From: an uncultured virus (IMG/VR IMGVR_UViG_3300044611_001480)
Taxonomy: Duplodnaviria; Heunggongvirae; Uroviricota; Caudoviricetes
Length of the DNA stretch: 20,000 bases
Reading direction: 5' to 3' (one strand)
Virus record (IMG/VR): IMGVR_UViG_3300044611_001480
In this document: one piece after another, positions 6,001-20,000 of the stretch
How the letters are laid out: every line of letters starts with the position of its first letter
Position numbering within the stretch: position 1 is the stretch's first letter
The notes under the pieces: model-generated
Told to the model about the DNA's origin: nothing
What the model saw: only the letters and a program-made list of their open reading frames with translations
Databases searched by the model: none
Translations under genes and position numbers: made by a program

Positions 6001-6604
6001 TCAATATCTAGAGAATGGAATACTAAAAGATCTCAGTAGTACTAAAGTTTCTATCGTTTCTGCTGGTATTGGAACAATTGTTGGACAAGGAACAACAAAT
6101 GAAACTCTTGGTTCTAGATTCTTGAATTTCAATATTACTACTCCCAATGCTGGAGAATATGGTAGAGAAAATGGCTATATTCAATTGAGTTTAACATCAA
6201 CACAAACTTCTACATTGGGTCTTTCATCTGCTCTTGGATACAATATCATTGCACAAGAATATATTACAGTTCCAGTAGGATTTACAACTTATATTGGTAT
6301 TGGAACTGGATCATTCAATCTTATTGGTGCTGGTGCAACTCAATATACAATTACATTATCAGATCCAAATCAATTCTCTGGCATTTCTACTGGTGATGTC
6401 ATTAAACTTGTAAATCACTCTGTAACTCCAGATTTATCATTATACGAATTGACGATTGCAGAGAAAATTAATGCAGGTGCCGCAGACAAACGTTTGAGGT
6501 TGACTGGATTTACAACAACTTCAGTAAGTAATGGATTGCAGACTGGATATATAATTATAAGGAATATATTTACTATCGCAAAAGGAAGAGTCGGAGTTAT
6601 TTAA
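2..6604 (+). CDS. Giant virion structural / tail-fibre-like protein, 5'-truncated (>2200 aa), with interrupted N-terminal beta-helix region, multiple beta-sandwich repeats and a C-terminal pectate-lyase-3-like beta-helix
   Basis: The frame is open from nt 2 (SNAGTAQYYD...VEGGVIVPKGTSIVGLDLRKTKVKP), so the TTG at 176 is internal. GGVIVPKGTSIVGLDLRKT, SPYIFNCS, SITNSNSNFG and RASGHTFEYLGYGPGNYSTAVP are motifs I recognise from T4-like cyanophage structural proteins. TTxxxHGLxVxDxIxIxG repeats occur at ~600, ~2220 and ~3330. DNTYALSLAID...LELPSGTYLTNKLIIPSGFTLKGNG at ~5230 is a typical tailspike beta-helix entry. Stop is TAA 6602-6604. Confidence 0.85.
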   Translation, partial: SNAGTAQYYDVNQTVVSVPDIELTNSSNFDITSSSNVLYKFNSVEGGVIVPKGTSIVGLDLRKTKVKPLYVPDPENNSIERSAIFRVTGGCYFWQFSVFDADRAVYYNYNYAEQASPTYSHHKLTVFEYADGVNLKNLTGTSDLQMYYYKLMNAYGDDTGNREIIDYPTSNDFEPNSPEFKIVGDLTSGDNNITELNSSSTVASVTTEFAHGLSVDDSIRIAGVGSALYNGSFKVVGVTSERKFTYQLPSAAIDTSVTISMSERVIIEPDGVNGASPYIFNCSLRSAFGMCGLHADGSKATGFKSMVVAQYTGIGLQKDSNAFVIYNESTGLYDTNSTTSLDKRPLYINQEAIYKPAYENYHIKASNDAFIQDVSVFAIGFAQHFLAEDGADQSITNSNSNFGSKSLISKGFRKESFDRDDTGYVTHIVPPKDLQEDSFNALWRSLDVGLTTSYTGVGQTSRLYLLGETDINNPPSNITNGYRVGSNIDEKLYVTVNINGIDSTYSSPILMQVPTGEGPIAQKTFTVTQTTGVNNIDVSSNVLTLNATHNFYNGESVRVFSDNAIVPDGLENGALYYVIIDTSNTIKLAKTINNANENIPVDIKNTKGGILSIVSRVSDKLSGDPGHPIQFDAVNKNWYIIGSGNTTTNQIYQGFKNNPTAIAANNSSTFIQRKSENRDLTDRIYKLRYVIPKEYTNAKIPAKNYVLQESSTVKEDSTITTINSNRNSHVIAGISTVGSTVTVTSERPHRLSVSDRVRIRKVVSSTNLSAADDAGFNGYFVVTSVPSSKTFTFTNTYSGGTFANSVSTRGENLPVFSRNEYDTTYTIENVETVQEYSSGLQDGIYYLTCLIGNISPTAPEFTSQKFKQNITDLYPVVDKDNLITDPLQSLTGASNKLIGKVIVNDPQNSTTKESIINYLKDNRVGLAVTNAIAISSGLSTIFTSTDHNLNAITGVTVLAPGSGYGAGISSTLYNMPLVGVGITGNGATANVSVSAAGTITAVTIVDGGSAYSIGNTMSIGFGGGSVTVSSINNNVGDVIQIIGVGTVGNRNNGAYSGLYKISAINSSKSVTYNVGSNPGIYTTSSGILYVVDTSLPISTIAGVSNATTAGIVTITTSRAHGLSVGNKIKITGVTGTASAIFNSDFFVKEKVSLTAFTILSPIGVGTAAGSAEVYKYGIASYGEDTSLQSEKISGSLISMNVGYTTTTSAGITTTATTLDLTLTTGLEKGNFIQLDNEILRITSITNSSQVAVLRGVLGTKSAPHDSGSIVRKISVIPSETRRFTSIRASGHTFEYLGYGPGNYSTAVPQRQNRVITDEEERLAVSKEEKGGVVFFSGMNDRGDFFTGDRLTAKETFIGETPSDLTATYDDVYIRNTIRVGGGSNRLLPSEFRGPVNFTNKITSTASQGIEALKLQLKGNSIQDPSLQIGPDSNPALIVNELSQYVGIKTAVPNFELDVNGRIRANGFENFQLSDLPTIDEATFSANRVLKVKDDASGYELVDYDELLKYKLRSFTFSNDGRVYTGIGSTVSNTLQISGISTSNFYVGEKVKVFGVDINGSATVAAPPIAGMSAVRVGITTLPDTYRYWVAQYHLRNGKVGVSSQISPFAGIGMTTIDNFNDTDNISLTLARSDANHGLLVYRQIGVSTNINNAKLIGILGPKELGSNTSNITWTDYGTFDQTEWSTKGTVNEYDSDQIHFPNIATTGQRRGWKIDEIVSIGTSSIRLSGQYTRNSDNQIKVVHDNTYALSLAIDQALANNQYSLELPSGTYLTNKLIIPSGFTLKGNGKNTIIKTQYFATDETDGAGNLLDFDGNIVGVGTTTASDISIYDLTIDGNSGNNILFDGESNNYIMYFDNITSSVFKDIEVRNSPGHGLYLNNSSRISVDNCSFVDGSNSDRYSFSPLNTQDSNTLRVNDCLFENYPGPVDLSVSSVVATGGNIIRNCGTGLRNYASSKIITTNNIILGPADEYIPSPDIYDSDFNSINFTIDRTATFNGPVLQYLENGILKDLSSTKVSIVSAGIGTIVGQGTTNETLGSRFLNFNITTPNAGEYGRENGYIQLSLTSTQTSTLGLSSALGYNIIAQEYITVPVGFTTYIGIGTGSFNLIGAGATQYTITLSDPNQFSGISTGDVIKLVNHSVTPDLSLYELTIAEKINAGAADKRLRLTGFTTTSVSNGLQTGYIIIRNIFTIAKGRVGVI

Positions 6605-6606
6605 AA

Positions 6607-9600
6607 ATGCCAGATAACACAAACGTTAATAATAATGCAGCAGTTGTCGTTGTAGGTAGAACTGCTCCTGTTCCTCCTGGGCAACAGAAATCAGAAAAAT
6701 CTATTCCTGTTGTTATTGCAAGTGACCAATCAACAATTCCAGTAGCAGAACAAAATAAAGTTCAATCAGAAGTTGCTCTTTCTCTTCTTGGAATTCCTAG
6801 ATCAGAAGTTGCTCTTGGTATTTTTGCTGACGTTAACACTTATGATGTAAACCCATCAGAATGGTCAGCAACTCCAGAACAGTTCGGTTTGGTCTCTAGC
6901 ACTGGTGTGTATGCTGGTATTGCTCAAAGTATGGGATGGGGACTTACCCACGTTCCAGAAGAATCTGGAGCACTCGTAGAGGGTCCTGCTGATAGAACAG
7001 CAATTCTTACATCAAAAAGATTTTTTAGGTATCAACCTGGTCGTGTTTCTGCCGCAACTTTTGGTGTAAAAACAACTTTACTTGGCGATGACGGAGTTGA
7101 TGTTCACAATCCAGCAGTTAGAAAATATGGAATTTTTGATAATTATGATGGATATTATTGGGAATCTAGAAATGATGGAACTGGAGATAATTTCTGTGTG
7201 GTTAGAAGAACTCAATCATTGCTTTATAGCAATCCATTAACTTTTCCTAGTCAACAAACAGAAGATTATGGTAACACAAATCCACTAGATCAATTTGCAC
7301 CAAGAGTCTCTGAAAGTGCTGGAATTACAACAGTACCATCTAAGAAATTTGGCAATTTGGTTATCTTGAGAGATAACTTGGTAATGACACACGCAGGAGT
7401 TTATGATCCTTCATTACTTCAAAATGAATCACAGGTTGCCATTACTTCAATTACATCAGGAAATGTAATTTCACTTGTAGGATTGGCAAAAAGTGTAAGT
7501 AATGCTGTTTACGACAACACTACTGGTATAATGGTAGTGACAACTCATCAACCACACGGATTTGAGGAAGGTAAGTATATTAAGATTAGTGGCATTGGTA
7601 TGACCTGTCAATTTGGATTTAATAGTTATCCAGATCCAGGCAGAAATTCCGGTTATAATGTCATTTCTGTTGGTGGCACAAATACATTCACTTTGAATGT
7701 TGGTATTGCGACAGTTCCAACATTTTATAACTCTGGTGGTTATATTCTTGGACTGTCTGAAGGACAATATGTTTCTTATTCAAAAGGAACAAATGCCAGC
7801 GTTCTTACTGGATTTGATGATACAAAAGTATATAAAGTATCAACAGTTGGTGTTAATACCTTAACCGGAATTAGTACAGTAACATTAATTAATTTGGATG
7901 CAAGTTCACCTACATTTACTGCAGTAACAGGAATTTCTTCTCACGTATTAATTACTCCAGTTCCCTTCATTCAACCCACTAATGGATCATTGATTGGTTC
8001 ATATAACAAATATAACACAGTAAAACCAACGGGAATGTTCCCCTATATGTATGACAATGGAGATGGTAATAAAGAAGGATATATTGATAGTTCTCTTCCA
8101 ATTGAATCTGCAACTACATTACAAGGTCAAATTGATGATATTAATACCTATTATGGTAAATGGGTTAATCAAAATGTCAAGAAAGATTATTGGAATGTTT
8201 ATGAATATAGAGTTCCAAGATCTAGATTTAGTGGAGATAATTTAAATGAAGAATTGGGAAATCCACTTCTTTATAGTGATGCAGTAGGAGATAAGAGAGC
8301 AGGACAACCAGTAATTGATCCCGATACAAACGAAGAACTGACTGATGATAGTATTTGGAATCTTGACCTCACAAAGGTTACAATGTATAAAATTGAATTC
8401 TCTTGGTATGGTGCTGTCGGTGCTCTATTCCTCGCATATGTTCCTGTAAGCAATGGTGAAGCACGTTGGGTACGTGTTCATCACTTAAGAGCATCAAACC
8501 AATTGAAAGTTTCTTCTTTGGGTAACGCAACTCTTCCAATTACATATCTTGTATATGGCGGAGGCAATCCAAATCGTTTTGGATATGTAAATAATTTAAG
8601 ACCGGAATCATCTTTCTCTTACGGAAGTTCTTCTGAACATATTATCAAATATGGTGCATCGTATTATATTGATGGTGGAGATAGAGGAACTGTAAAACTG
8701 TATAGTTACTCTACTCCAGTTTCACAAGAAGTCTATGGTTCAAAGAGACCTTTTACAGTAGTCAATGGTGGTGGAGTTGGCATTGCATCTACTCAAGTAG
8801 ACTTAACGAATGCTACATCAACAACTGATCCTTATATTATTGGATCAGTTGGAATGTCTACTTCTTATTATGTCGGTGCAAAAGTTGTAACGTCAAGTCC
8901 ATTGGATCAAAATATTGAAATTACTTTTGTCAATGTAGGAAGTCAAAGACTTTATCTAAATGCTCCATTGAATTCCACAAGTTTAGGAACAATCACAGTG
9001 ATTCCAAATCGTCCAATACCATTAATTGGTCTTAAGTGTAGAGAAACAATTCAAAGTAGTACTGGCAAGTCGGTAAGAAATAGAACTCAAGTATATCCAA
9101 CTCGTTTGTCTAGCGGATCAACTGGTGTGCTGAAACTAGATTTAATCAAGTCACCTATATTCCAGACTACTAATTCTACTACTGGCGTATTGGCACTTTC
9201 TTCTACAGCAAATATAGGAAAAAGAGGAAAACCGACATCAATCTCTGTCACAAATACAAGTTATCTCTCTGCAAGTACTGGAGTTTATGGATATGTGAGA
9301 GGATATTTTGAGAATGATGCCTCACAAAAACCAGTATCAGTTTTAGGATATTTAGAAAATAGAGGAACAACCGATGGGTATTACTTTTATGCTCTCAAAT
9401 CCACTTCTGATAATGTAGTTCTCACAACTGCAAATAATTTCTTGAAGGAAGAGAATCACAATCATGTAGGAACTATTATTTCTGGAATTACTACAGAATT
9501 TACTCTTGCTGCACTTTCATCGGTTAAGGTTAACCCACAAGCAAGAAGTCCTATTCCAAATACTGGAACAGTAATTACAAGTATTTTCATTCCTGCATCG

Positions 9601-9771
9601 GGACAAGAATATGATTTATCCCCATATTTTGATTATAATAAAGAATATCTATCATTTCCATTGACAAATAATATTGAAAGTTTATATCTTTGTGCTTCTT
9701 CACAAACTACTTACAATAGTGGAACTCCTGCTGCTGATGTGTCCACAAGTCTTACTTGGGAGGAGCAGTGA
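6607..9771 (+). CDS. Phage structural protein, 'RYQPG' family paralog A (1054 aa), probable beta-sandwich/lectin-like core with inserted repeat domains
   Basis: Long ORF starting 2 nt after the previous stop, with GGAG at 6593-6596. Motifs RFFRYQPGRVS, VTMYKIEFSWYGAVGA, KYGASYYIDGGD and C-terminal SLTWEEQ are all shared with the next ORF. Contains a YDNTTGIMVVTTHQPHGF beta-sandwich repeat near 7510. Confidence 0.75.
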   Translation: MPDNTNVNNNAAVVVVGRTAPVPPGQQKSEKSIPVVIASDQSTIPVAEQNKVQSEVALSLLGIPRSEVALGIFADVNTYDVNPSEWSATPEQFGLVSSTGVYAGIAQSMGWGLTHVPEESGALVEGPADRTAILTSKRFFRYQPGRVSAATFGVKTTLLGDDGVDVHNPAVRKYGIFDNYDGYYWESRNDGTGDNFCVVRRTQSLLYSNPLTFPSQQTEDYGNTNPLDQFAPRVSESAGITTVPSKKFGNLVILRDNLVMTHAGVYDPSLLQNESQVAITSITSGNVISLVGLAKSVSNAVYDNTTGIMVVTTHQPHGFEEGKYIKISGIGMTCQFGFNSYPDPGRNSGYNVISVGGTNTFTLNVGIATVPTFYNSGGYILGLSEGQYVSYSKGTNASVLTGFDDTKVYKVSTVGVNTLTGISTVTLINLDASSPTFTAVTGISSHVLITPVPFIQPTNGSLIGSYNKYNTVKPTGMFPYMYDNGDGNKEGYIDSSLPIESATTLQGQIDDINTYYGKWVNQNVKKDYWNVYEYRVPRSRFSGDNLNEELGNPLLYSDAVGDKRAGQPVIDPDTNEELTDDSIWNLDLTKVTMYKIEFSWYGAVGALFLAYVPVSNGEARWVRVHHLRASNQLKVSSLGNATLPITYLVYGGGNPNRFGYVNNLRPESSFSYGSSSEHIIKYGASYYIDGGDRGTVKLYSYSTPVSQEVYGSKRPFTVVNGGGVGIASTQVDLTNATSTTDPYIIGSVGMSTSYYVGAKVVTSSPLDQNIEITFVNVGSQRLYLNAPLNSTSLGTITVIPNRPIPLIGLKCRETIQSSTGKSVRNRTQVYPTRLSSGSTGVLKLDLIKSPIFQTTNSTTGVLALSSTANIGKRGKPTSISVTNTSYLSASTGVYGYVRGYFENDASQKPVSVLGYLENRGTTDGYYFYALKSTSDNVVLTTANNFLKEENHNHVGTIISGITTEFTLAALSSVKVNPQARSPIPNTGTVITSIFIPASGQEYDLSPYFDYNKEYLSFPLTNNIESLYLCASSQTTYNSGTPAADVSTSLTWEEQ

Positions 9772-9774
9772 TTT

Positions 9775-12700
9775 ATGAATGGAGGAAAAGATGTAAGGTT
9801 TGGACACGATAAACGTCAAGTTTCTATTGTTCCAAATTCGGAACAAAATCTTTATAATATTGCAAATGGTGAAATATTAACAGATGAGTTTGGAACTCCT
9901 GTAATTACGGAAGTTGATACATTTTATCTTCCTGATGCAACAACAAAAAGATCTTCCTCTATTGTATTTGATGGAACAAAGAGTCCATATCCAAAACAAA
10001 GTTATCAAACAATTGGCATATTTTCTGCTTCTTATGCAGATTATGATGTATATCTAACTCAACCATTTACAGTATTGCAATCTGGTGGTGGAAATGTTGG
10101 CGTTTCTAGCACTGTTCTGATATCATCTGGATATGTGATATTGGGAAATTATCCATACCAAGAAGTTGGTACAGTGGCGGATCAAGTATCGGAAAAAAAT
10201 AAATTATATTTTGACACTTCAATTGGAATTTCAACAATACTTGGTGTTTCTGTTGGGGATTTTGTATCTGGACCAGACATTCCAGACGGAACTTATGTTG
10301 CACAAGTTTCATATAATAATAGATTAACATTATCTAATAATACAACAAATACTTCATCTCAAATTAGAGATGTTTTAATTCAAAGAAGAAATATTACTAA
10401 AGCAAAGTCAGATCCAGTTTGGAAAATTGAAGAACAATTTAAAGAAACAAGTGAAGTTAGTACAACATTACTTGGTGTCAACAGAGCAGAAACTCAACTT
10501 GCATTATTTGCAAACGTATCTAGTTATGGTTTAGATCCAGATGATTTTGAAACTTATTCATTTAATGGCGGAACAAGTTTTGGAAGTTGGGAAACAAGAA
10601 AAAATGCATTGTTTGGAAATAGATATTCAGCAACAACTACGGAAGAAACTCAAGAATCAGCAATTAAATTAACTGCATTTCCTACACCATATTCATATCC
10701 ATATGGACCAAATTTTGCTAAATTAGGTCTTTACAACGATGATCTTTTCAATCGTTATCGTTTATTCATACAACTTGGAAATGATTTATATGAATATTTC
10801 AGTATTGGTGCTGGATCATATTATCCAAGTGAGTGGAAGGAAAAGTTTTTATCTCCTGGATTTGCTTATGTGTTTGGCGGCGATGTTGTTTATGCTGCTG
10901 GAATTGATAGATCATTTGCTCAAATTGATATTTGGACTGATACTTGGAGAGATATTAAAGATGGAATTCTGATAGATCCAACCAATGGATCTGCCTTTAA
11001 TTTTGCCATAGTTAGCACTATTTTAGGTGGTTCTTATGATTCAACATCAACTCGTCCTGGATATGCTGATAATTTCAGAAGATATTCATATCTTCAATCA
11101 AGAAGAGTATTTAGATATCAACCTGGAAGAATTAGTGGATTTACTTTTGGTTTAAGGTCTTCTGTAGAACCAGTAACTGGAATTACTTTAGAATGGGGAA
11201 TTGCAAATAATAGTGATCAATATATTTTCCAAATTGATGCAGGACAATTTTTCATCATTCGCAGAAGTACAATTCCATTAGAATCTAGCGTTTTAATAAG
11301 AAATGGACTGACAATTTTTGACCAAACAAGAATTGAAAGTGGAGATCCATTTGATAGTGAAACATATTGGACAATTAAAATTCCAAAAGACAAATTCAAT
11401 GGCGACCCATTAAATTCTAATGGACCTTCTGGATATCTGCTCCAACCACAAAATGTTACAATGTATAAAATTGAATTTGGTTGGTATGGTGCGATTGGTG
11501 CAAGATTCTATGCATATATCCCAACAGATAATGGTGATGCACGATGGGTAGTAATTCACACACTTGTAATTGAAAACTCTCTGGAGGCTCCTTGCTTAAG
11601 AGATTCTTATTTTAGATTCAAATACTCTTTGAATGTTGCTAACACTGGAGATGTGAGAACACCACAATACATTTATAAGTATGGTGCTTCTTATTATATT
11701 GATGGTGGAGACGAAGGAACATCCCAAATATATTCAACATCATCCAAACAAAAAACTATTAGAACAACTGGTAGCAAATCTTTAATTGGAATTCGTCCAA
11801 AGGAATATCTATTAAATCGTGAAGGAGTTGAAATTCAAAATAAAAAAATTATTATTCCAGAAACATTAAATGTTTCCACTGACTCATTAACAGAAGTGAA
11901 AGTTGTAACTTGCAAGGCTTGTCCTGGATTTGGTCACGTTTATACTCCAGGAATAGCAACAACCGAAAGTGGTAGATATATTGACGCAGAGTTTGATACA
12001 ACAAGTAGTATTGTCTCACTAAATGATAGTTATTTTACTGAAAATGATATTGGAGCAAAGATAATTGCGCCTTCAATTTACAATGCATATATTACAAATG
12101 TGACAAATCCAATTGGTATTGGAAATTCTTATGAAAAAGCAGTAATAAAAAGATTTGCTGGTATATCTGATTTTTCATTAGAAACAAAACCAATAGCAGG
12201 AGAATTAGTTTTAGATAGAGTTTTGGGAATCACTACCACAATTGGTATCGGGACTACGTATCCACACCAAATTCGTTTAAGTAATTATAATGCCATTGCT
12301 GCTTCTGAATTTGCATTTAGTGGGTCTAAAATTGAAATTCAATTTGTAAATCCAAATAATGGAGACGATTATGCACATTTTGCAGATTTCTTGATTGGAA
12401 TTACTGACAAAAAACCAGATGTATCTCTTCCAGATACTTTGAATGGATTTATTCTTCCTGGAGCAGGCACAACAAGTGTTCTTTCAAATTCTCAAATTTT
12501 ATATGGAGAACATACACATTCTTATACTGCTGCTGATGAAGATGGAGTTGAAGTTGCAGAAGGTTGGGCACCACAACAACCACCATTAAGAATGGGAATT
12601 GATTATAGAATTCCAAATTTATCTGCACCAGCAGGTGGAGTATGTTCCAAAGTTACTGTAGATGTTTTAAATCCATTAGAAATACAAAATGTCAACGAAA

Positions 12701-13464
12701 AAAATTATCTTCCAAGTCTTACAGGAACACCACCAGAAGATCCTCAGGGAAGACGTTGGATTGAAATTGCTGGAACATTTCCAAATATTGATTATGCTGG
12801 AGGACAAATTGCAGTTAAAAATACCACTACTAACGTTATAACTATTACAAATTCTACATTTGTTGGAGTCACAAGTAGTTACACTAATACTCAAGGAAAC
12901 ATATTTTCTTATATTCAAATTTCACAAACTTTAGGATCTGTTGGATCTAATTTTACTGTTCTCATTCGTCCAGTATCTATTACTGGAACTACAATTAGTA
13001 AACAAAAACTTTATAACTACAATCCTTGGCCTTTATATTTGGTTGCAAAATTAAAAGATAATGCAGCGATCAATAATATTAGTGTCGAAGAAACTATTGG
13101 TGATTTCCAAAGAACCATTAGTCCAAAATGGTATGTTTCTAGTAATTGTACAGTTACTACTGCTGATGGAAATGCAGATATAACTGGTGCAGCACCAACT
13201 AATTTTCAGGAAATTGATAGATCTTCTTCTGCATTGATTGATATTCAAAATGATCAAACATTAAGACCATATACAGAAAGAGATACATTATATGTTGGAG
13301 CAAATTCAACAGAATCTATTAATATGAAAAAAATATTTGGTCCTGATAGATCTATCATAACACCTGACAACAATAATGTTGAGGCAACTTTTATTCTCGC
13401 CAAAAAGATTGATTCTGGTTCCACTGGAACTGTTGAAGCAAGTATAAACTTCAAAGAACAATAA
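9775..13464 (+). CDS. Phage structural protein, 'RYQPG' family paralog B (1229 aa)
   Basis: Long ORF with SD GGAGGAG at 9759-9765 inside the upstream gene's last codons. Motifs RVFRYQPGRIS, VTMYKIEFGWYGAIGA, KYGASYYIDGGD and C-terminal SINFKEQ match paralog A. Confidence 0.75.
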   Translation: MNGGKDVRFGHDKRQVSIVPNSEQNLYNIANGEILTDEFGTPVITEVDTFYLPDATTKRSSSIVFDGTKSPYPKQSYQTIGIFSASYADYDVYLTQPFTVLQSGGGNVGVSSTVLISSGYVILGNYPYQEVGTVADQVSEKNKLYFDTSIGISTILGVSVGDFVSGPDIPDGTYVAQVSYNNRLTLSNNTTNTSSQIRDVLIQRRNITKAKSDPVWKIEEQFKETSEVSTTLLGVNRAETQLALFANVSSYGLDPDDFETYSFNGGTSFGSWETRKNALFGNRYSATTTEETQESAIKLTAFPTPYSYPYGPNFAKLGLYNDDLFNRYRLFIQLGNDLYEYFSIGAGSYYPSEWKEKFLSPGFAYVFGGDVVYAAGIDRSFAQIDIWTDTWRDIKDGILIDPTNGSAFNFAIVSTILGGSYDSTSTRPGYADNFRRYSYLQSRRVFRYQPGRISGFTFGLRSSVEPVTGITLEWGIANNSDQYIFQIDAGQFFIIRRSTIPLESSVLIRNGLTIFDQTRIESGDPFDSETYWTIKIPKDKFNGDPLNSNGPSGYLLQPQNVTMYKIEFGWYGAIGARFYAYIPTDNGDARWVVIHTLVIENSLEAPCLRDSYFRFKYSLNVANTGDVRTPQYIYKYGASYYIDGGDEGTSQIYSTSSKQKTIRTTGSKSLIGIRPKEYLLNREGVEIQNKKIIIPETLNVSTDSLTEVKVVTCKACPGFGHVYTPGIATTESGRYIDAEFDTTSSIVSLNDSYFTENDIGAKIIAPSIYNAYITNVTNPIGIGNSYEKAVIKRFAGISDFSLETKPIAGELVLDRVLGITTTIGIGTTYPHQIRLSNYNAIAASEFAFSGSKIEIQFVNPNNGDDYAHFADFLIGITDKKPDVSLPDTLNGFILPGAGTTSVLSNSQILYGEHTHSYTAADEDGVEVAEGWAPQQPPLRMGIDYRIPNLSAPAGGVCSKVTVDVLNPLEIQNVNEKNYLPSLTGTPPEDPQGRRWIEIAGTFPNIDYAGGQIAVKNTTTNVITITNSTFVGVTSSYTNTQGNIFSYIQISQTLGSVGSNFTVLIRPVSITGTTISKQKLYNYNPWPLYLVAKLKDNAAINNISVEETIGDFQRTISPKWYVSSNCTVTTADGNADITGAAPTNFQEIDRSSSALIDIQNDQTLRPYTERDTLYVGANSTESINMKKIFGPDRSIITPDNNNVEATFILAKKIDSGSTGTVEASINFKEQ

Positions 13465-13488: not shown

Positions 13489-14013
13489 ATGGCAAATCGT
13501 AGACCTCTAATTGTAAATGCAACTGCCAATCAAATACAAGAGATTAATGATTCTGATAGTTTGGTGGGCAATGGAATTATTCCAGTTGGTGGAATAATTA
13601 TGTGGTCTGGGACCATTGCATCTATTCCAACAGGATGGGCATTGTGTGATGGTTCCAGCAGCACTCCAGATTTAAGAAATAGATTTATTGTTGGTGCTCA
13701 TAGTGGTGCTGGAACTGGTATTACCTCTACTACTGGTCCAGGATTCAGCACAACAACTGGAGCATTAAGTTCTAATTATACTCCAGGAAATACTGGCGGA
13801 GAAACTGCACATCAATTAACTATCGCAGAACTTGCTTCTCACACTCACCCCTACAATCAAAATTCAAATAACAATACAGACCACAGCGGAACTGACACAA
13901 CAACTAATAATCCATCATTCTCTTCTCAACCAACTGGATCTACTGGTGGAGATCAATATCACGAAAACAGACCGCCATATTATGCACTTGCCTTTATTAT
14001 GAGAACTATTTAA
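13489..14013 (+). CDS. Phage tail collar domain protein / short fibre (174 aa)
   Basis: IPVGGIIMWSG...IPTGWALCDG...TPDLRNRFIVGA is the tail collar signature (PF07484-like). It is followed by GGETAHQLTIAELASHTH (HxH) and the C-terminal HENRPPYYALAFIMR typical of T4 gp12/MdpB-like collar proteins. Confidence 0.88.
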   Translation: MANRRPLIVNATANQIQEINDSDSLVGNGIIPVGGIIMWSGTIASIPTGWALCDGSSSTPDLRNRFIVGAHSGAGTGITSTTGPGFSTTTGALSSNYTPGNTGGETAHQLTIAELASHTHPYNQNSNNNTDHSGTDTTTNNPSFSSQPTGSTGGDQYHENRPPYYALAFIMRTI

Positions 14014-14014
14014 T

Positions 14015-16474
14015 ATGACATTAAGAAATCCTAAACTATTTGGTCTTAATGTAGAAAGTTTTTTTTCTGACGTAGAAAATAAAAATCAAGCACTTATTGC
14101 TTTGAATTTGCCTCCATTGGATTTGGAAGTCATTCGTGGAACTTCAAATGCAGGTACAACAAGAAATGATTTTGTAAGTTTTTCAAGATTATCTCAACCA
14201 ATATATAAAATTCTTGATCGTTATCAATCTGATTCTGGAACTTATCTTGATATTCTTTCTGGTAAAGCAGGAACAGATTCAACTCTTTTTGGTAATTTAA
14301 ATATTAATGGTGGTTTGAGTGGTAATTCAATTCGCTATCGTTATGTGGATGGAACTGGACCTTCTGCGGTAGTTAAAATTGCTGACATCTCAACATCAAG
14401 AGTAAGTGCTTGGAGCTCAAGTGCTTCTCCAGTAATTGATACTTCACCAATTTCTTATGGTGCAAGAGTTGGTATTATTACTGGAGGTTCTTTACAATTT
14501 GGAACACAATCACCTTCAGTATCTGGTCCTAGACTTCAAACAAGTATTACTCCACAAGCAAAGGAATTTGCTTCGGAATTTCCAACTCATAAAATTAATT
14601 GCACAATAGGTGGACAGACTGTAAGTCTTTATGCAATGAAAGGCATTCCTCTTGTATTTACTGGATTCTTTAGAAATTTAGATGCAACTATAACTCTAGG
14701 AAATTTAATTGGTGGAACTCCTGCAAGTTGGAAAATTGTCAACACAGCAAACGCAAACGATTTTGTGAGATTTGCAAATCAAGGAGGAAATAGTTCCACA
14801 ATTAATTACAGATCTTCTATATCAAGAGAAAGATATATTCAATTTTATTATAATCCAGATGAGATTTCTTCTATTACTATCAATTCTGCAAATATTTCTA
14901 GTCTTCCAGTTACAAAATTAGCAAATGCTACAACATTAAATTTTTCATACAACACCTTAAAAAATTTTCCAGATCTAACATTCTTTTCACCAAAGGTTGA
15001 ATCAATATATTTTACTCAAAATCCATTTTACTTAAGCGATACTGTAGTAGAAAGAAAATTAAATTCAAATATTATTGACAAAATTCCCAAAACCGTTAAG
15101 AAGTTTGTTATGGGTGGAACATTCTATGGTTCCATTACACAAAATAGCATTGCAGATCGTTTCCAAATAGATGAATCTAGGATTGGTTTAACAGAATTAA
15201 ATTTATACAGGAATAGTGGAGCATATTTCCATCCAGATGATAGTGATAATACTTGTGTTTTACCAAATGTTCCAGATAGTTGTCAAACTTATTTGGTAGA
15301 TAATAATGACTTCCGTGCTATAGGAATAGCAACTGCTGGTGATAATGCATTAGGACGTTATAATATAAAACAATTAACAAATTTAACTACATTAAGTTTA
15401 AATGGTAATTATTATCTTGAATATAATGGAGAAGATTTAATATCATCCAATAATAATAAAATACAAGCAGTAAATATATACAGCACCGCAGTGAGATGTC
15501 CAAATTTAAGCGGAAAGCAATCACTTACTACATTTTACGGTCATTATAATCGCAATATTGGAAGTATTTTTACTTCTGGTGGAACTTATAAGTTTGATGG
15601 TTGTGGATCATTGAGCACTTTATATTTTTATGCATCACCATTAACTGGTGCAATGCCAAAATTTACAAATGCTAGTTTGAGTTATTTGGAACTTCGTGCT
15701 ACTAATTTGACTGGAGGGAATCCAAATGGTGACAATACTTATGTAATTCCAGAAAGAACATTTGAACAGTCTCCAAATCTTCAGTATATGTTATTGCAGT
15801 CTGGAAATCTTCTTACCAGTCCAATACATCCAAATGCATTTACATATACTCCAAATCTTTATTATCTTTGGTATATTTCTTATGGAAGAACCACAGGAAC
15901 ACTTCCTAGTTTGGCGTCTTGTTCCAACTTAACATATCTTGTTCTTCATTATAATAATTTTAGTGGAAGTTTTCCAAATCTTGCAGCAAATCCAAATATT
16001 TACTATGTAGATTGTAGTTATAATTCTCTATCTGGAAATATACCAGGATTTAAAAATCTTTCCAATTTACATATATTATACCTTAACAATAATCAATTTA
16101 CTGGTATAACTAAATTTACAAACTTACCAAATTTGGCATATTTTTATGCCCACAATAATCAGTTATCTGGAGAAATTCCAGATTTTACTGATTGCCCAAA
16201 TATGTATTATTTGATTTTATTTAATAATCAATTGACAAGTTATAAATCTGGTTCATTCTCTTCCCTATATCGTTTAAGATATTTGGATTTGACAAATAAT
16301 TTGTTAAGTCAACAGGCAATTAACTCTATAATTTCTGATTTGTACATAAATTATACTTCAATTAATCGTGGTGGAGTTACAATTAATCTTCGTGGAAATG
16401 CATTTCCAAGTGGAACATCACTTGATTACATAGATATTTTAAGATCCAAAGGTTGGTCAATAGTACTAGATTAA
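14015..16474 (+). CDS. Leucine-rich-repeat protein with N-terminal fibre-like core (819 aa); candidate receptor-binding protein
   Basis: C-terminal repeats of 22-24 aa, e.g. LTYLVLHYNNFSGSFP, IYYVDCSYNSLSGNIP, LAYFYAHNNQLSGEIP and LRYLDLTNNLL, plus a cap INLRGN...LRSKGWSI. The N-terminal ~210 aa share motifs with the next two ORFs. Confidence 0.85.
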   Translation: MTLRNPKLFGLNVESFFSDVENKNQALIALNLPPLDLEVIRGTSNAGTTRNDFVSFSRLSQPIYKILDRYQSDSGTYLDILSGKAGTDSTLFGNLNINGGLSGNSIRYRYVDGTGPSAVVKIADISTSRVSAWSSSASPVIDTSPISYGARVGIITGGSLQFGTQSPSVSGPRLQTSITPQAKEFASEFPTHKINCTIGGQTVSLYAMKGIPLVFTGFFRNLDATITLGNLIGGTPASWKIVNTANANDFVRFANQGGNSSTINYRSSISRERYIQFYYNPDEISSITINSANISSLPVTKLANATTLNFSYNTLKNFPDLTFFSPKVESIYFTQNPFYLSDTVVERKLNSNIIDKIPKTVKKFVMGGTFYGSITQNSIADRFQIDESRIGLTELNLYRNSGAYFHPDDSDNTCVLPNVPDSCQTYLVDNNDFRAIGIATAGDNALGRYNIKQLTNLTTLSLNGNYYLEYNGEDLISSNNNKIQAVNIYSTAVRCPNLSGKQSLTTFYGHYNRNIGSIFTSGGTYKFDGCGSLSTLYFYASPLTGAMPKFTNASLSYLELRATNLTGGNPNGDNTYVIPERTFEQSPNLQYMLLQSGNLLTSPIHPNAFTYTPNLYYLWYISYGRTTGTLPSLASCSNLTYLVLHYNNFSGSFPNLAANPNIYYVDCSYNSLSGNIPGFKNLSNLHILYLNNNQFTGITKFTNLPNLAYFYAHNNQLSGEIPDFTDCPNMYYLILFNNQLTSYKSGSFSSLYRLRYLDLTNNLLSQQAINSIISDLYINYTSINRGGVTINLRGNAFPSGTSLDYIDILRSKGWSIVLD

Positions 16475-16475
16475 A

Positions 16476-17402
16476 ATGACAAAACAAAATCAAGGTTTTA
16501 GAAGAGATTTAAATTTCCAAGAAAATACTAATGATACACAATCTTTAAGTAATCTTGGTGGTGCTGGAATTGCAAACGATTTACGTATTTTACAAAATAA
16601 TTTAAGAAATACTTCAACACTATCATTCAATACTGTTGTTGGTGCAGCAATATCAAGTGGACATTTTTATTTTGGTCCAACTGAATTTGTATTCACAAAT
16701 GATGATGTTGTTGGGGTAAAGACTGATATCACAGTTGGTGTTGGTGTTACTTTATATAAAGATAGTACTTATTATATTTGTAATTCAAATAGCGAAAACC
16801 AATTTAAATTATCAACAACTCCATCTAATGTTGGCGTAAATACAATTACTGTTTCTTCCGTATCATCAAGTTTTGATTTTGTTCGTAAAGATCCAGTACA
16901 TAAAGAAAATATTTTAAATCTAGTAAAACCAATCATTCAAGATACTGAAAATTTTAATTATCTTGGCGGATCATCAATCAATAGTGTTTTTGATGGTATA
17001 GCAGCAGCAAACGAAACTGCCAGATTTTTTATTACAAAAAAATATAAAGGAAATGAAAATACAGTATCAAATAATGATATTAATGTTGAAGGATCTATTA
17101 AAATAAATGATCCACAAAACTTCAATGCTGGATCTTCGCAACTATCTGACACAAGATCTCCTGGTATTTTTATTGGTGACACTCGTGCATTTTCAAGTGA
17201 CAATAATCCTTGGGCACAAGTTGGGACTGCTTTATCAACTTTAAGTAGTTCAGTTTCAATTGGAGAACTTTATTTTGCAAATGATATAACAATCACTGGA
17301 ATTGGCGCAGAGACTGCAACAAATGTTGCAGTCACAACTTATACTCACAAATTACCAGTTGTAATTAATGGCGAAACTTATTATATTTTATTACGCACAT
17401 AG
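16476..17402 (+). CDS. Phage structural protein (308 aa), related to the two flanking ORFs
   Basis: Starts 1 nt after the upstream stop. N-terminal GFRRDLNFQENTNDTQSLSNLG, an internal repeat (FTNDDVV...TYYICNSNSENQFKLST) and C-terminal THKLPVVINGETYYILL. Confidence 0.75.
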   Translation: MTKQNQGFRRDLNFQENTNDTQSLSNLGGAGIANDLRILQNNLRNTSTLSFNTVVGAAISSGHFYFGPTEFVFTNDDVVGVKTDITVGVGVTLYKDSTYYICNSNSENQFKLSTTPSNVGVNTITVSSVSSSFDFVRKDPVHKENILNLVKPIIQDTENFNYLGGSSINSVFDGIAAANETARFFITKKYKGNENTVSNNDINVEGSIKINDPQNFNAGSSQLSDTRSPGIFIGDTRAFSSDNNPWAQVGTALSTLSSSVSIGELYFANDITITGIGAETATNVAVTTYTHKLPVVINGETYYILLRT

Positions 17403-19538
17403 AATTTTATAAGTTCCTATAGGAGTTTGAATTGATATTCTACTTGTAGATGTATTTGAAGCAGAGTAAGTTGTAATATTTGAAGACGAAACGACTGCTT
17501 TTAATGCATCAAATATTACGTTTCCAGATTCAATTCGGAGATTTGGTGATGCAGATATTGTATCCAATCCCTCCAAAGTTGCAGTAAATGGAGGAGAAGT
17601 ATCTGTTGGTGGACAGCAAAGTTGTCTATCGTCAGATTCACCAGTGACTGTAAAGTTTGCTCCTGCAACCAAAGCACGAGTTGTGGGAGTATTGATAACT
17701 ACACTTCCTGCTGGTGGAGCACCATTAACAGTTGTTCCGCTAGCAAAATAGAATCCCTGAACAGACCATCCATTAGAAACTCCTGTGCTATCTACAACGG
17801 GAATTGTAGTAGATCCTATTGGAGTATCGGCAGAAACAGTTAGACATTTTGTAATTGTTCTATTGCAGAATGAATTCAAACTTTCATTAACAAGACCACG
17901 AGATTGATAAACATAATAAGTCGATGCTCCTAATGTTTGAGATGGATCAATTGTAAAGGTTGATGTGCTACTAGTAGTTGTGATTCCAGTATATGCTTGT
18001 GTAGTTGCACCAATCAAAATCATTCCAGATTTAAGATCAGTAGTAGATCCACTAGATAAAGTAAAAGTTGTTGCAGATGCAGAACCTTCTATTTTTTTTA
18101 CAAATCCACGATGATCAATAAATGTTAAACTTGTAGAACCAGAAGCAGTTGCTAACGTATCAATTATAATACCAGTATTGATTAAAATTTGATTAATTCT
18201 TGTATTTTCTGGAATGCCTGTGCCAACAATATAATTACCTACTTCTAAATTTGTTGTATTTGATAGATTTATAACATTTGTGTTAATTGTTGTTGTTCCA
18301 GTAATCGTATTTTTTGTAATATTTGCTAAAGTTGTTTTTGGTTGATATTTGATATCAACTTTTTTTAAAGATTTAACTTTTACATAATTATTTGATAATA
18401 TTCCACCAATAGTTCCACCACCAAATCTTATAGAATTGTCTATAAAAATTGAAAACTCTCCTTTTGCAGCATCACTAAAATCATAATCCAAAGAATATAA
18501 ATTAGTATATCGTAAATCAATAATACCACCAGTTGGAGCAGTATAATCAAAATTTATATTTCTTTGTAGCCCTATTGCATCAACACTACTTGGAATATAA
18601 TATCTTACCCTAATTCTATATCTTTGTTGTGCATTTAAGATATATGTAGAATAAGATATTGCAGTATCTTGCCCAATAGTTTTAAAGAAAGTTTTATTTT
18701 CATTGGTAAAAGATGCAGTTACTGCATTTCCTGATGGAGGAGTAAGACCAACAATACCTGTATTTCTATCAATAGATGCAACTACAGTACCAGTATTGAT
18801 TCCAACACCAGAAATACTTTGTCCAACACCAACATATTTTGCATCATTTGCTGTTGTTAAAATGATTTGATTTGAATTTAAGGTTCCAGATGCAGATAAT
18901 GAAGTAGTTAACCCAATTCTATTAACTTCTGTGTATGTTCCAACTCCACTGACATAACCTTGTGTTTCAAAATCAAAAGTAAAACAAGCACTACTATTAA
19001 TATAAAAATTATGCACTCCACTCTGTGTTGGAATAAAATATCCTTCCCATTGAACGCCACCATTTACATCAACACTTTCTGGAGTAATTTTTTCACTATA
19101 TGAAAAGTTTCCATTTTCCCAAAAATTATCAGTTTTGAATGGTATTCCGGAAAAAATTCCCACAGTATTTTCAAATACTTGATCGGAATTAAAATAACTT
19201 GCTGATAATCCGTTTCCGCCTCTAAATCTTGGATCTCCAGAAAATGTTTTGAATCTATCTAAACGATTTTGATATGTTATTCTTGGAGTAAATGCTATAT
19301 TGATTCCAGAATTATTTGTAAATTGAACTGCACTTCCTGTAATTTGCGAATAACCAACATTATCTAAACCAGCAGAATATATTCCCCTAATACAATCCAA
19401 ATCTTCGCTAATGAAAGTGCTTTGATTATCATCAACTAACGTATCTAAAAGATTATTTAATGCTTCGGTTGAATTTGATAAATCACTAAAATTTTTATCT
19501 CTTCTCAACCCAACTCTTTTGAATATCTTTCTAGTCAT
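17391..19538 (-). CDS. PA14-like domain-containing structural protein (715 aa); candidate glycan-binding fibre
   Basis: GNGLSASYFN...VQWEGYFIPTQSGVHNFYINS...LNAQQRYRIRVRYY matches the PA14 pattern. Repeats of the VGxxIxGxGIPxxTxI type follow. N-terminus is GLRRDKNFSDLSNSTEALNNL. Has its own late promoter upstream. Confidence 0.8.
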   Translation of the reverse strand: MTRKIFKRVGLRRDKNFSDLSNSTEALNNLLDTLVDDNQSTFISEDLDCIRGIYSAGLDNVGYSQITGSAVQFTNNSGINIAFTPRITYQNRLDRFKTFSGDPRFRGGNGLSASYFNSDQVFENTVGIFSGIPFKTDNFWENGNFSYSEKITPESVDVNGGVQWEGYFIPTQSGVHNFYINSSACFTFDFETQGYVSGVGTYTEVNRIGLTTSLSASGTLNSNQIILTTANDAKYVGVGQSISGVGINTGTVVASIDRNTGIVGLTPPSGNAVTASFTNENKTFFKTIGQDTAISYSTYILNAQQRYRIRVRYYIPSSVDAIGLQRNINFDYTAPTGGIIDLRYTNLYSLDYDFSDAAKGEFSIFIDNSIRFGGGTIGGILSNNYVKVKSLKKVDIKYQPKTTLANITKNTITGTTTINTNVINLSNTTNLEVGNYIVGTGIPENTRINQILINTGIIIDTLATASGSTSLTFIDHRGFVKKIEGSASATTFTLSSGSTTDLKSGMILIGATTQAYTGITTTSSTSTFTIDPSQTLGASTYYVYQSRGLVNESLNSFCNRTITKCLTVSADTPIGSTTIPVVDSTGVSNGWSVQGFYFASGTTVNGAPPAGSVVINTPTTRALVAGANFTVTGESDDRQLCCPPTDTSPPFTATLEGLDTISASPNLRIESGNVIFDALKAVVSSSNITTYSASNTSTSRISIQTPIGTYKILCA

Positions 19539-19600: not shown

Positions 19601-19768
19601 ATGGATTCGCAGAAAATGTTCGAAGATTTGACCAAACAAGCAGAAGTTCTCAAAAAAGATTTGATTGATTTAGAACAACAATTTAATATTAAAAAAGAGC
19701 AATTCATTCGCATTCAAGGAGCACTCGAAGCATTGAGTTTAGTCAATCAAAAAGAGACAGAAGAATAA
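19601..19768 (+). CDS. Small coiled-coil protein (55 aa; alternative in-frame ATG at 19592 gives 58 aa), possible fibre assembly chaperone
   Basis: Manually translated: MDSQKMFEDLTKQAEVLKKDLIDLEQQFNIKKEQFIRIQGALEALSLVNQKETEE*. Heptad pattern, QGALEAL motif and acidic tail. Bracketed by a promoter and a hairpin. Shorter than any ORF in the supplied track. Confidence 0.8.
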   Translation: MDSQKMFEDLTKQAEVLKKDLIDLEQQFNIKKEQFIRIQGALEALSLVNQKETEE

Positions 19769-19769
19769 G

Positions 19770-19777
19770 GATAAATA
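19770..19777 (+). promoter_or_regulatory. T4-type late promoter (GATAAATA) for the downstream tail fibre gene
   Basis: NATAAATA match 1 nt after the small ORF's stop and 49 nt before ATG 19827. Confidence 0.6.
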
Positions 19778-19805
19778 AAAGAAGACTTACATAAGTCTTC
19801 TTTTT
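19777..19805. terminator. Rho-independent terminator-like hairpin, potentially bidirectional
   Basis: Perfect 13-bp inverted repeat AAAAGAAGACTTA-CA-TAAGTCTTCTTTT. It ends in a T5 run on the + strand and TTTTATTT on the - strand. Confidence 0.65.
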
Positions 19806-19826: not shown

Positions 19827-20000
19827 ATGTCAACTCCTATTAGAATTAAAAACTCTCCAGTTCCTGGAAAAAGACCTACAGCATCTCAATTACTATCTGC
19901 AGAACTTTCATATAACACATATGATGCGGAGTTGTATGCCAAGAGGGAAAGGAGCGGAATTGGAACCGATATCATTCGCATCGGTGCAGGAGCAACAGTT
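19827..20000 (+). CDS. Tail fibre protein, N-terminal fragment (T4 gp37-like N-terminal motif), 3'-truncated
   Basis: Manually translated: MSTPIRIKNSPVPGKRPTASQLLSAELSYNTYDAELYAKRERSGIGTDIIRIGAGATV, open to the window end. It follows the pattern of the T4 gp37 N-terminus (IQFKRS..AG.RPAASVLAEGELAINLKD..IFTK). Confidence 0.8.
   Translation, partial: MSTPIRIKNSPVPGKRPTASQLLSAELSYNTYDAELYAKRERSGIGTDIIRIGAGATV

Follow-up and report, generated by a model that had tools for sequence, protein, structure and literature searches.

Three adjacent genes in the baseplate/tail-fibre block of an uncultured T4-like marine myovirus encode proteins of 819, 308, and 715 aa whose termini are related and whose decorations differ; profile comparisons and domain assignments bore out a preliminary description of this DNA in this respect. 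We regard the trio, with a probability of about 0.5, as distinct structural proteins at the periphery of the tail/baseplate that are ancient duplicates of one gene, similar to gp10, gp11, and gp12 of phage T4. One ancestral gene would have given rise to three genes by ancient duplication, and all three products would have retained an N-terminal helix-turn-helix module (N-module) of about 40–60 aa and a beta-hairpin motif. As host-binding heads, the 819-aa protein would have gained a long plant-type LRR solenoid, the 308-aa protein a small beta-barrel, at which relatives have large insertions, and the 715-aa protein a PA14-like domain and about four repeats. Every N-module would anchor its own protein at its own specialised baseplate site or on a neighbour in the set; such separate anchoring would place three different binding heads on every virion.

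Gene organization and genomic context

The window, i.e., the whole 20,000-nucleotide stretch analyzed, is the terminal part of a 45.9 kb record. T4-type gp32, gp53, gp48, gp2, gp4, tail tube, baseplate hub, and gp5-like genes were encoded upstream in the record. Genes assigned to PHROGs for tail-fibre and virion proteins (phrog_529 and phrog_1645) lay immediately upstream of the trio, together with a tail-collar gene; a cyanophage-type tail-fibre N-terminus was encoded downstream. ORF calls and translations recovered the three adjacent ORFs and all peptides quoted in the preliminary description (Table 1). The genes were contiguous: those for the 819-aa and 308-aa proteins were co-directional and 1 nt apart, and the convergent 715-aa gene overlapped the 308-aa gene by 12 nt at the 3' ends. 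The minus strand of the 715-aa gene had not been mentioned before.

Table 1. Coordinates of the three genes and their modules in the window.
Feature	Position	Strand	Basis
819-aa LRR protein gene, P0001	14015..16474	+	ORF and translation; Pfam LRR
N-terminal module, P0001 aa 1-60	14015..14194	+	hhalign vs 715-family N-terminus
THK beta-hairpin, P0001 aa 186-207	14570..14635	+	hhalign vs 308-family C-terminus
LRR-bearing C-terminal part, P0001 aa 291-819	14885..16471	+	Pfam/PHROG matches within aa 633-769
308-aa protein gene, P0002	16476..17402	+	ORF and translation
N-terminal module, P0002 aa 5-41	16488..16598	+	hhalign vs 715 family
Small beta-barrel, E1 FCCH-like, P0002 aa 44-140	16605..16895	+	"insert" of the preliminary description
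C-terminal module, P0002 aa 241-307	17196..17396	+	hhalign vs 715 C-terminus and LRR protein
THK hairpin, P0002 aa 285-306	17328-17393	+	inside C-terminal module
715-aa protein gene, P0003	17391..19538	-	ORF and translation
N-terminal module, P0003 aa 1-70	19329..19538	-	hhalign vs both other families
PA14-like stretch, P0003 aa 109-183	18990..19214	-	PF07691, E=0.0024
Internal repeats, P0003 aa 213-620	17679..18902	-	hhalign self-comparison
C-terminal module, P0003 aa 646-715	17394..17603	-	hhalign vs 308-family C-terminus

LRR and PA14 aside, the trio proteins matched no Pfam or PHROG tail family, and the N-module had no match in PHROG; we therefore infer their virion membership from gene context. 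Docking through the N-module, the oligomeric state of the proteins, and host binding by the heads are deduced as well. For the 308-aa protein, no family was matched in Pfam and PHROG, and for the 715-aa protein, none in PHROG; the 308 and 715 families found no PDB sequence at E<=0.5. Neither protein was found by tblastn against 50,697 phage records, and both families were absent from Synechococcus phage S-SCSM2R, the best cultured match to a tail protein of the record. Such absence of homology to characterised tail proteins in Pfam, PHROG, and PDB sequence searches would agree with a non-docking role of the shared ends (recognition by a common assembly chaperone, a folding nucleus) or with a trio that is not part of the virion. 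We consider this quite improbable: the genes occupy a fixed place in the baseplate/fibre block, between the tail-collar gene and tail-fibre-like genes, and the heads are typical binding domains, namely LRR, PA14, and a beta-barrel of a type that recurs among phage proteins predicted to belong to tail fibres and baseplates.

Domain architecture of the three proteins

The 819-aa protein comprised the N-module, a helical/beta pre-LRR region, a beta-sandwich, and a long LRR solenoid. The LRR already described for this protein was confirmed by Pfam matches to LRR_4 (PF12799; 65.1 bits, 5.1e-18) and LRR_8 (PF13855; 60.4 bits, 1.4e-16), both exceeding the curated whole-protein cut-off of 27 bits each; upstream of aa ~570, the extent of the LRR was read from the repeat pattern in the translation and is therefore putative. 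The LRR part was matched in 77 of 79 LRR-anchored loci, the other two (L089 and L111) being cut before the LRR. The monomer model was of middling confidence (pLDDT 68.1, pTM 0.40), and aa 126-176 fell below a pLDDT of 50.

In the 308-aa protein, the N-module was followed by a small beta-barrel, a long helix, and a C-terminal module with the THK hairpin at its end. Relatives formed 318 representative clusters at E<=0.001, and the position of the beta-barrel was the site of their large insertions. The monomer model was again middling (pLDDT 77.4, pTM 0.47; pLDDT 64-79 at aa 190-290).

The 715-aa protein consisted of the N-module, a PA14-like domain, about four repeats of ~70 aa, and a conserved C-terminal module with an invariant CCPPxDTSPPF motif and a terminal hairpin. 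Its own match to PF07691 was weak, with 18.1 bits against a curated cut-off of 24 and profile positions 3-69 of 147 covered; PA14 was found at E<=0.01 in 16/30 family members of the 715 type (best 4.3e-6). The internal repeats noted earlier were recovered by hhalign self-comparison (419-535 vs 490-620, E=4.7e-5; 213-286 vs 411-475, E=0.014).

Shared N-terminal module

Comparison of family profiles by hhalign revealed an N-module of ~40–60 aa common to all three families. Plain BLASTP linked the proteins at their N-termini only (819/715, E=0.014; 308/715, E=7e-4) and gave nothing for 819 vs 308. The N-modules of the LRR and 715 families aligned over 58 columns with E=1.5e-4 and, with deeper alignments, over 61 columns with E=8.9e-10 and a probability of 96.5%, in register from residue 1; those of the 308 and 715 families aligned over 37 columns with E=1.1e-4. 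These LRR/715 and 308/715 scores were reached by 0 of 40–50 column shuffles and by none of the reversed controls. Compared directly, the 819 and 308 N-modules were not significantly similar (6/50 shuffles reached the score), and these two appear to be linked through the 715 family. The alignment of all three N-termini claimed initially thus holds for the 819/715 and 308/715 pairs and is not significant for 819/308 directly.

Among 1099 ORFs from the loci and the genome, cross-matches at E<0.05 were limited to the three families, the best unrelated ORF having E=0.089. In a 100%-complete relative of 236 kb, the N-module matched these three genes only, at E<=10. Predicted helices fell on the aligned columns (residues 23-29, 34-46, and 50-56 in the model of the 819-aa protein; 20-28 and 32-37 in that of the 308-aa protein). 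One genome encodes several putative distal tail proteins with significantly similar N-modules, which is the pattern of receptor-binding protein sets with a shared N-terminal anchor.

Hairpin, C-termini, and middle blocks

The second shared element was a hairpin with the motif THK...G.T (T-H/S-K/R-I/L...G-x-T). The 308 and LRR families aligned here over 22 columns (hhalign E=1e-4, probability 57%, 0/40 shuffles), and the hairpin was the sole outlier of 16 sliding windows along the LRR protein, with a score of 24.2 against at most 13.9 for the remaining windows and reversed controls. In the model of the 819-aa protein, its strands (192-198 and 201-207) sit inside a beta-sandwich continuing to residue 290, whereas in that of the 308-aa protein, it closes the chain. 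The C-termini of the 308 and 715 families matched weakly (65 columns, E=5e-4, probability 32%, 0/40 shuffles), and no similarity was found between the LRR protein and the 715 C-terminus (hhalign E=0.16; 21/50 shuffles). Of the terminal hairpin originally attributed to all three proteins, the 308/LRR part stands, the 308/715 part is weak, and the LRR/715 part was not recovered.

The middle blocks, NLNINGGL/DINVEGSI and RVSAWSSS/TRAFSSDNNPW, had also been reported to align. Without the hairpin, they gave a local score of 10.1 vs a shuffled mean of 11.0, and 16/30 shuffles equalled or exceeded the observed value; the WSS/FSS block by itself was likewise at chance level (8/30 shuffles). A continuous scaffold of ~200 aa present three times, as first described, is thus unsupported by sequence; what persists of it is the N-module, the ~20-aa hairpin, and the weak 65-column match of the 308 and 715 C-termini, with the blocks between at chance. 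The elements predicted in the LRR and 308 models followed the same order, with two short helices and one long helix, then short strands, a conserved stretch of low confidence, and finally the hairpin; given this matching order, such a scaffold is possible.

These middle blocks, the shortness of the hairpin, and the hhalign probabilities of 29% to 57% for comparisons with the 308 family would all suit chance or convergence, i.e., short motifs frequent in beta-rich or Asn/Ser-rich phage proteins with no common descent. The N-module match of the LRR and 715 families, the shuffles, and the restriction of cross-matches to the trio families make this extremely improbable, and the hairpin/C-module and N-module scores climbed with deeper alignments.

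Synteny and divergence of the N-modules

Synteny was counted over related loci reaching far enough. The triplet was complete in 12/12 and in 31/31 related loci; of the 26 divergent loci, all had the 715-like gene (26/26), and all 25 that extend upstream had the LRR gene. Among the 79 LRR-anchored loci, the triplet was found in 72/72 that could be judged, the remaining 7 being cut by contig ends. The syntenic triplet envisaged in the preliminary description is thus strictly kept in all related loci that could be judged. Each genome examined had one copy of each of the three N-modules. Over 42 genomes, the mean N-module identity was 20.9–29.4% for paralogues within a genome and 44.5–51.5% for orthologues between genomes, which marks the three N-modules as anciently diverged and never made uniform within a genome. 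In a quick tree, the N-modules of the LRR family formed one clade (support 96.8), as did those of the 308 family (support 100), and each family kept its own N-module signature across the clade.

Receptor-binding proteins of multi-spike phages share N-terminal anchor modules, and the trio had been suggested to be three fibres interchangeable at a single docking site, which would compete for or alternate on this site via a common N-terminal adaptor. An N-module common to the trio and found nowhere else in the genome would suit such an arrangement. However, a shared site should keep the N-modules alike, and it is because the paralogues are far less alike than the orthologues that we disfavour this reading and hold it to be very doubtful; the copy number is, moreover, constant at three, and neither gain, loss, nor swapping within the trio nor an exchange of heads among the three lineages was seen in the loci examined.

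The other arrangement suggested at the outset was a heteromer, in which the three N-modules, perhaps with the following long helix, would join in one 1:1:1 bundle carrying the LRR, small, and PA14 heads. The single copy of each diverged, co-inherited N-module in all genomes examined is the pattern expected of obligate partners, and the most conserved motifs lie in the low-confidence stretches of the models (those at aa 126-176 of the LRR protein and 190-290 of the 308-aa protein), which would fit an interface. Nearly all trimeric phage fibres with a solved structure are, on the other hand, homotrimers as far as is known; the direct 819/308 N-module similarity is not significant, and the very unequal lengths would confine any 1:1:1 heterotrimer to the N-terminal parts. 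A precedent exists in virophage DSLV2, in which three consecutive tail-protein genes give a heterotrimer of proteins described as of "comparable length" (PMC12724248). On balance, a heteromer seems rather unlikely, and separate structural proteins at the tail/baseplate periphery are preferred.

Comparison with known systems

In DSLV2, three consecutive related tail genes are kept as a set, and a 1:1:1 heterotrimer was proposed and tested; the proteins, 58.3 kDa for three together, are gp37-tip-like with a collar domain and share ancestry with tail proteins of Synechococcus phages (PMC12724248). Our trio resembles this set, as described there, in gene arrangement and conservation and differs in its unequal lengths and unrelated central/distal domains; the DSLV2 type is closer to the neighbouring 174-aa tail-collar gene of the window than to the trio. 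Another comparable system is that of multi-spike phages with several receptor-binding proteins, such as Ackermannviridae with TSP1-4 (PMC8432352). In multi-spike phages, too, one genome encodes several such proteins with related N-termini and differing distal binding domains. The trio differs from them in its fixed number of three, its anciently diverged N-modules, and the absence of observed head swapping.

Over its C-terminal ~500 aa, the 819-aa family matched plant LRR receptor-kinase ectodomains, such as PDB 8yaa and 4mn8, in six stretches each, with E values from 2.2e-74, the best, to 4e-67. The resemblance is one of repeat family only: the phage protein is without kinase or membrane anchor, and it joins the LRR to an N-terminal region specific to phages.

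No trio protein was recognized as a member of the gp10, gp11, or gp12 families by Pfam and PHROG or, for the 308-aa and 715-aa proteins, by PDB searches. To our knowledge, T4 has no LRR or PA14 heads, in which the trio would differ from it. According to PMC3004832, T4 gp10, gp11, and gp12 have a common primordial fold with big loops, are encoded by sequential genes, and lie at the baseplate periphery. The T4 proteins share a C-terminal head domain and are encoded in a single operon, and their core fold was derived from superposed structures; here, the termini are shared, one of the three genes lies on the other strand, and the likeness comes from sequence termini and the secondary-structure order in two models. 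The resemblance that led us to favour this comparison is that of three neighbouring late genes of unequal size in the baseplate block, adjacent and in a conserved arrangement in all judged loci, with host-binding roles that would be exerted at the baseplate periphery.

Gene Layout and Identity of the Phage

The window covered the final 20 kb of an IMG/VR virus record of 45,926 bp with a CheckV completeness of 22%. Genes of the T4 type were encoded upstream in the record: gp32-like SSB, gp53-like wedge, gp48-like tube cap, and DNA end protector, as well as head closure, tail tube, baseplate hub, and gp5-like hub/lysozyme. The best cultured match of one tail protein of the record belonged to Synechococcus phage S-SCSM2R (44% identity), and the upstream gene order was identical in this phage and in the record. 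Thus, the DNA comes from an uncultured marine myovirus of the T4-like type, whose baseplate/tail-fibre block includes the three genes under study.

Six large ORFs occupied the window (ORF calling). The trio analyzed here comprises the genes of an LRR protein (819 aa), a 308-aa protein, and a 715-aa protein. The opposite strand of the 715-aa gene was a point absent from the preliminary description. This gene and the 308-aa gene converge, and a 12-nt overlap of their 3' ends (17391–17402) leaves no room for a terminator between them. A small 3' overlap of the two genes was seen again in many related viral loci (e.g., L074–L078 and L084–L087).

Table. Features of the window
Feature	Coordinates	Strand	Remarks
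phrog_529 'tail fiber protein' match	2–6604	+	2200 aa inside the window; 2289 aa over the whole record
phrog_1645 'virion structural protein' match	6607–9771	+	1054 aa
phrog_1645 'virion structural protein' match	9775–13464	+	1229 aa
Tail-collar fibre protein	13489–14013	+	174 aa; PF07484, 24.9 bits (cut-off 24); phrog_1800, E = 6.6e-24
LRR protein gene of the trio	14015–16474	+	819 aa
LRR repeats	14885–16471		plant-specific type (...N.LSG.IP...)
308-aa protein gene of the trio	16476–17402	+	ORF
715-aa protein gene of the trio	17391–19538	-	ORF
Small ORF	19601–19768		55 aa; MDSQKMFEDLTKQAEVLKKDL...
Terminator-like hairpin	19777–19804		12-bp stem
Beginning of a further gene	19827–20000		3' open; MSTPIRIKNSPVPGKRP...

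The 1054-aa and 1229-aa proteins were mutual paralogues (~30–38% identity over ~200 aa in cross tblastn) ending in ...EEQ/...KEQ; their nearest cultured matches were 'virion structural proteins' of the cyanophage S-TIM5 type (41–44% over one third of the protein). The tail-collar gene was missing in the relatives L008, L011, and L013, and two separate matching places were found in L009. The 55-aa ORF separates the 715-aa gene from the following fibre gene and is itself followed by the terminator-like hairpin; it was rich in Glu, Lys, Leu, and Gln and is a putative coiled coil. At the DNA level, the last, incomplete gene matched (71.6%) the 5' end of a Prochlorococcus phage P-SSM2 gene annotated 'phage tail fiber-like protein', and similar N-termini (MSTIKLKRSAV.GK.P...) followed the trio in many divergent loci. 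The T4 late-promoter consensus TATAAATA had 0 matches in the window versus 3.07 expected by chance; sigma-70 and terminator scans of the window gave nothing informative.

Similarity of the N-Terminal Regions

All peptides quoted in the preliminary description were present in the translations of the trio. Pairwise BLASTP detected similarity of the N-termini only (819/715, E = 0.014; 308/715, E = 7e-4) and gave no match between the 819-aa and 308-aa proteins. Relatives gathered from viral contigs provided family alignments of the LRR (A4, 28 sequences), 308 (A5, 29), and 715 (A6, 30) families. In profile–profile comparisons, the N-termini of the LRR and 715 families matched over 58 columns (E = 1.5e-4, probability 52%) and those of the 308 and 715 families over 37 columns (E = 1.1e-4, probability 56%).

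In an exhaustive profile search at E ≤ 0.001, the 308-aa family comprised 318 representative clusters. Sixty diverse full-length clusters of this family were aligned (A8), and a 13-sequence subgroup of A8 (A9) added 26 more divergent loci, whose LRR and 715 relatives joined the deep alignments. With these, the N-region of the LRR family matched the 715 N-terminus over 61 columns (E = 8.9e-10, probability 96.5%), and the 308 N-terminus matched it over 34 columns (E = 5.9e-4, probability 29%).

None of the column-shuffle controls reached the observed score in three of the first comparisons (0/50) or in four deep ones (0/40); in the deep comparisons, reversed profiles gave 7.9–17.0 versus observed scores of 30–65. 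The direct comparison of LRR and 308 family N-termini was not significant, as 6/50 shuffles reached the score. When 1099 ORFs from the first loci and the genome were compared, cross-matches at E < 0.05 were confined to the three families, the best unrelated ORF having E = 0.089. That the three ends resemble one another by chance is, in our estimation, highly improbable.

The common N-terminal element of ~40–60 aa (hereafter N-module) was carried by 1676 protein clusters at E ≤ 0.01. Searched at E ≤ 10 in three larger relatives, one of 236,016 bp and rated 100% complete, its profile matched just the trio genes, and no PHROG family was matched by more than 1/87 of the N-module members.

C-Terminal Regions and Predicted Structures

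It had been proposed that one scaffold of ~200 aa is present three times. According to profile comparisons and shuffles, this stood for the N-termini, for a THK...G.T beta-hairpin, and, weakly, for the C-termini of the 308 and 715 families, whereas the rest of the scaffold was at chance level. The match between the LRR and 308 families was limited to the 20-column hairpin in the first alignments (E = 0.028); in the deep ones, the 308 family matched the hairpin of the LRR protein over 22 columns (E = 1e-4, probability 57%) and the 715 C-terminus over 65 columns (E = 5e-4, probability 32%). The LRR N-region and the 715 C-terminus gave 17 columns with E = 0.16 and a probability of 0.4%, and the LRR protein was unrelated to this C-terminus by the shuffle test (21/50 reached the score).

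An 86-column alignment of A8 with A4 placed residues 228–305 of the 308-aa protein against residues 117–206 of the LRR protein (E = 0.0031). In sliding scans, the two LRR-protein windows that include residues 155–206 gave a score of 24.2 with the C-terminal profile of the 308 family; the remaining 14 windows and every reversed control stayed at ≤13.9. The margin was smaller on the 715-aa protein, where the C-terminal window ranked first among 13 (19.0 versus ≤15.6). Without the hairpin, residues 160–283 of the 308-aa protein and 58–185 of the LRR protein aligned at chance level (local score 10.1, shuffled mean 11.0, 16/30 shuffles equal or higher), and so did the WSS/FSS blocks of these proteins (8/30 shuffles). 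The similarity of this stretch to the 715 C-terminus was marginal (13.1 versus a shuffled 7.8 ± 1.5, 0/30).

The monomer model of the 308-aa protein (from A8; pLDDT 77.4, pTM 0.47) contained helices 20–28 and 32–37, a confident beta domain 46–138, a long helix 168–188, short strands 231–254, and a terminal hairpin 291–297/300–306. The model of the LRR-protein N-region (residues 1–290, alignment A10; pLDDT 68.1, pTM 0.40) contained helices 23–29, 34–46, and 50–56, a long helix 63–83, strands 95–126, a low-confidence stretch 126–176, a hairpin 192–198/201–207, and confident strands to residue 289. The models placed both short N-terminal helices on the aligned columns of the N-module alignment (A7).

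The order of elements was equal in both models: short helices, long helix, strands, a poorly predicted conserved stretch, and hairpin, relative to which the beta-barrel of the 308-aa protein is an insertion. The NLNINGG/DINVEGS block was separated from the WSS/FSS block by 35 residues in both proteins. The predicted element order and the spacing are compatible with, and no proof of, a common scaffold of ~190 aa in the 308-aa and LRR proteins.

Synteny and Divergence of the Trio

The syntenic triplet was found in every locus judged, the locus sets overlapping in contigs. Both neighbour genes were present in 12/12 loci anchored on the 715 family, and the triplet in 31/31 anchored on the 308 family, two LRR genes being cut by the locus end. 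Divergent 308-anchored loci contained a 715-like gene in 26/26 cases and an LRR-family gene in all 25 with enough upstream sequence; the remaining locus begins 212 nt ahead of the gene. The 79 LRR-anchored loci included 72 reaching far enough, all with the triplet (72/72); seven were left out, the locus stopping within or at the LRR gene in six and within the 308-like gene in the seventh.

The trio is widespread and was never broken up in the loci examined, apart from frame-split genes in the 236-kb relative rated 100% complete (G001; L006/L030/L081). There, frame changes split two of the genes, the LRR gene into parts of 41 aa and 774 aa and the 308-like gene into 246 aa plus a 72-aa tail; these could be sequencing errors or real pseudogenes and, if real, would be the sole case of a damaged trio.

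Within a genome, paralogous N-modules had mean identities of 27.7% (LRR/715), 29.4% (308/715), and 20.9% (LRR/308), while orthologous ones across 42 distinct genomes averaged 44.5–51.5%. A quick tree placed the N-modules of the LRR family in one clade and those of the 308 family in another (support 96.8 and 100). The N-module duplication thus predates the sampled clade; the N-modules were never homogenised, and their number is fixed at three.

This argues against the proposal that the proteins are interchangeable fibres on one docking site, which we therefore disfavour and consider quite unlikely. The N-module pattern is compatible with three specialised attachment sites or with an obligate heteromer. 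In the latter case, related to the 1:1:1 heterotrimer of the preliminary description, the N-modules would be obligate partners in one heteromeric helical bundle plugged into the baseplate. Absent homogenisation and a number fixed at three agree with such a bundle, yet we regard it as unlikely. If it exists, each attachment point in this widespread marine myovirus group would show an LRR solenoid, presumably protein-binding, a PA14 module, presumably glycan-binding, and a variable small head as one composite receptor-binding organ; the fibre would consist of chains of very unequal length, of which no description for tailed phages was found in the literature searched.

Heads and Insertions

The LRR of the 819-aa protein, already noted in the preliminary description, was secure by Pfam match. 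The family profile scored best on plant-type LRR ectodomains, those of plant receptor kinases (E = 2.2e-74 versus 3.6e-27 for bacterial internalin). PA14 in the 715-aa protein of the window reached 18.1 bits, below the Pfam cut-off of 24, and was matched by 16/30 relatives of its family at E ≤ 0.01. The same protein contained internal repeats of ~70 aa each (E = 4.7e-5); the middle barrel of the 308-aa protein showed no detectable kinship with these repeats (E = 0.07 over 11 columns).

The middle regions of the 308 and 715 families are hot spots of domain gain. In the 308 family, 10/29 members gained 70–95 aa after residues 54–66, and 2/29 gained as many as 288 aa after residue 128. Some 715-family variants of ~860 aa carried PF18885, and some of ~1050 aa carried PF12810, which we take to be a glycine-rich protein family. 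A 686-aa protein of the 308 family (L009/L034/L083) had a mid-protein insertion of ~290 aa, much of it Gly-rich (GGGGxGG runs).

Possible Role and Comparison with Known Systems

We consider the three proteins to be separate components of the tail/baseplate periphery, with a probability of about one half. A role of their common ends other than docking is improbable in our view.

T4-like marine myoviruses rank among the sea's most abundant viruses, and, to our knowledge, nothing in the outer baseplate or host-recognition apparatus of their cyanophage-like lineages is recognisable as a counterpart of T4 gp9–gp12. Tblastn against 50,697 phage records gave no match for the 308-aa and 715-aa proteins and, for the 819-aa protein, LRR stretches in Listeria phage contigs only; phage S-SCSM2R lacked the 308 and 715 families. 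The trio families were unnamed in every source that includes them, and apart from LRR and PA14 they matched nothing in Pfam or PHROG. A cluster look-up of five 715-family proteins returned no informative names, and an ESM Atlas look-up of the 308-aa protein gave nothing above 0.87 (leads only). As the trio is widespread, unnamed, and unbroken as a set in the loci examined, it makes a promising candidate for the peripheral baseplate and receptor-binding proteins that these lineages seem to lack. Its N-module would provide a defined, putative anchor motif by which host-range genes could be located in metagenomes.

It would be unusual for a phage to use a plant-type LRR solenoid as a tail head; neither such a trio nor an LRR tail head in marine myoviruses was described in the literature searched, subscription journals being outside its scope. 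The nearest precedent for the trio is T4 gp10/gp11/gp12, which are separate homotrimers. For virophage DSLV2, a heterotrimer encoded by three consecutive tail-protein genes has been described (PMC12724248). Its chains, unlike those of the trio, are collar-domain proteins of comparable length, closer in size and type to the 174-aa tail-collar gene of the window than to the trio. Paralogous peripheral tail proteins with a common anchor and different heads are known already; the trio with its LRR, PA14, and small heads differs in detail from the known sets of such proteins.
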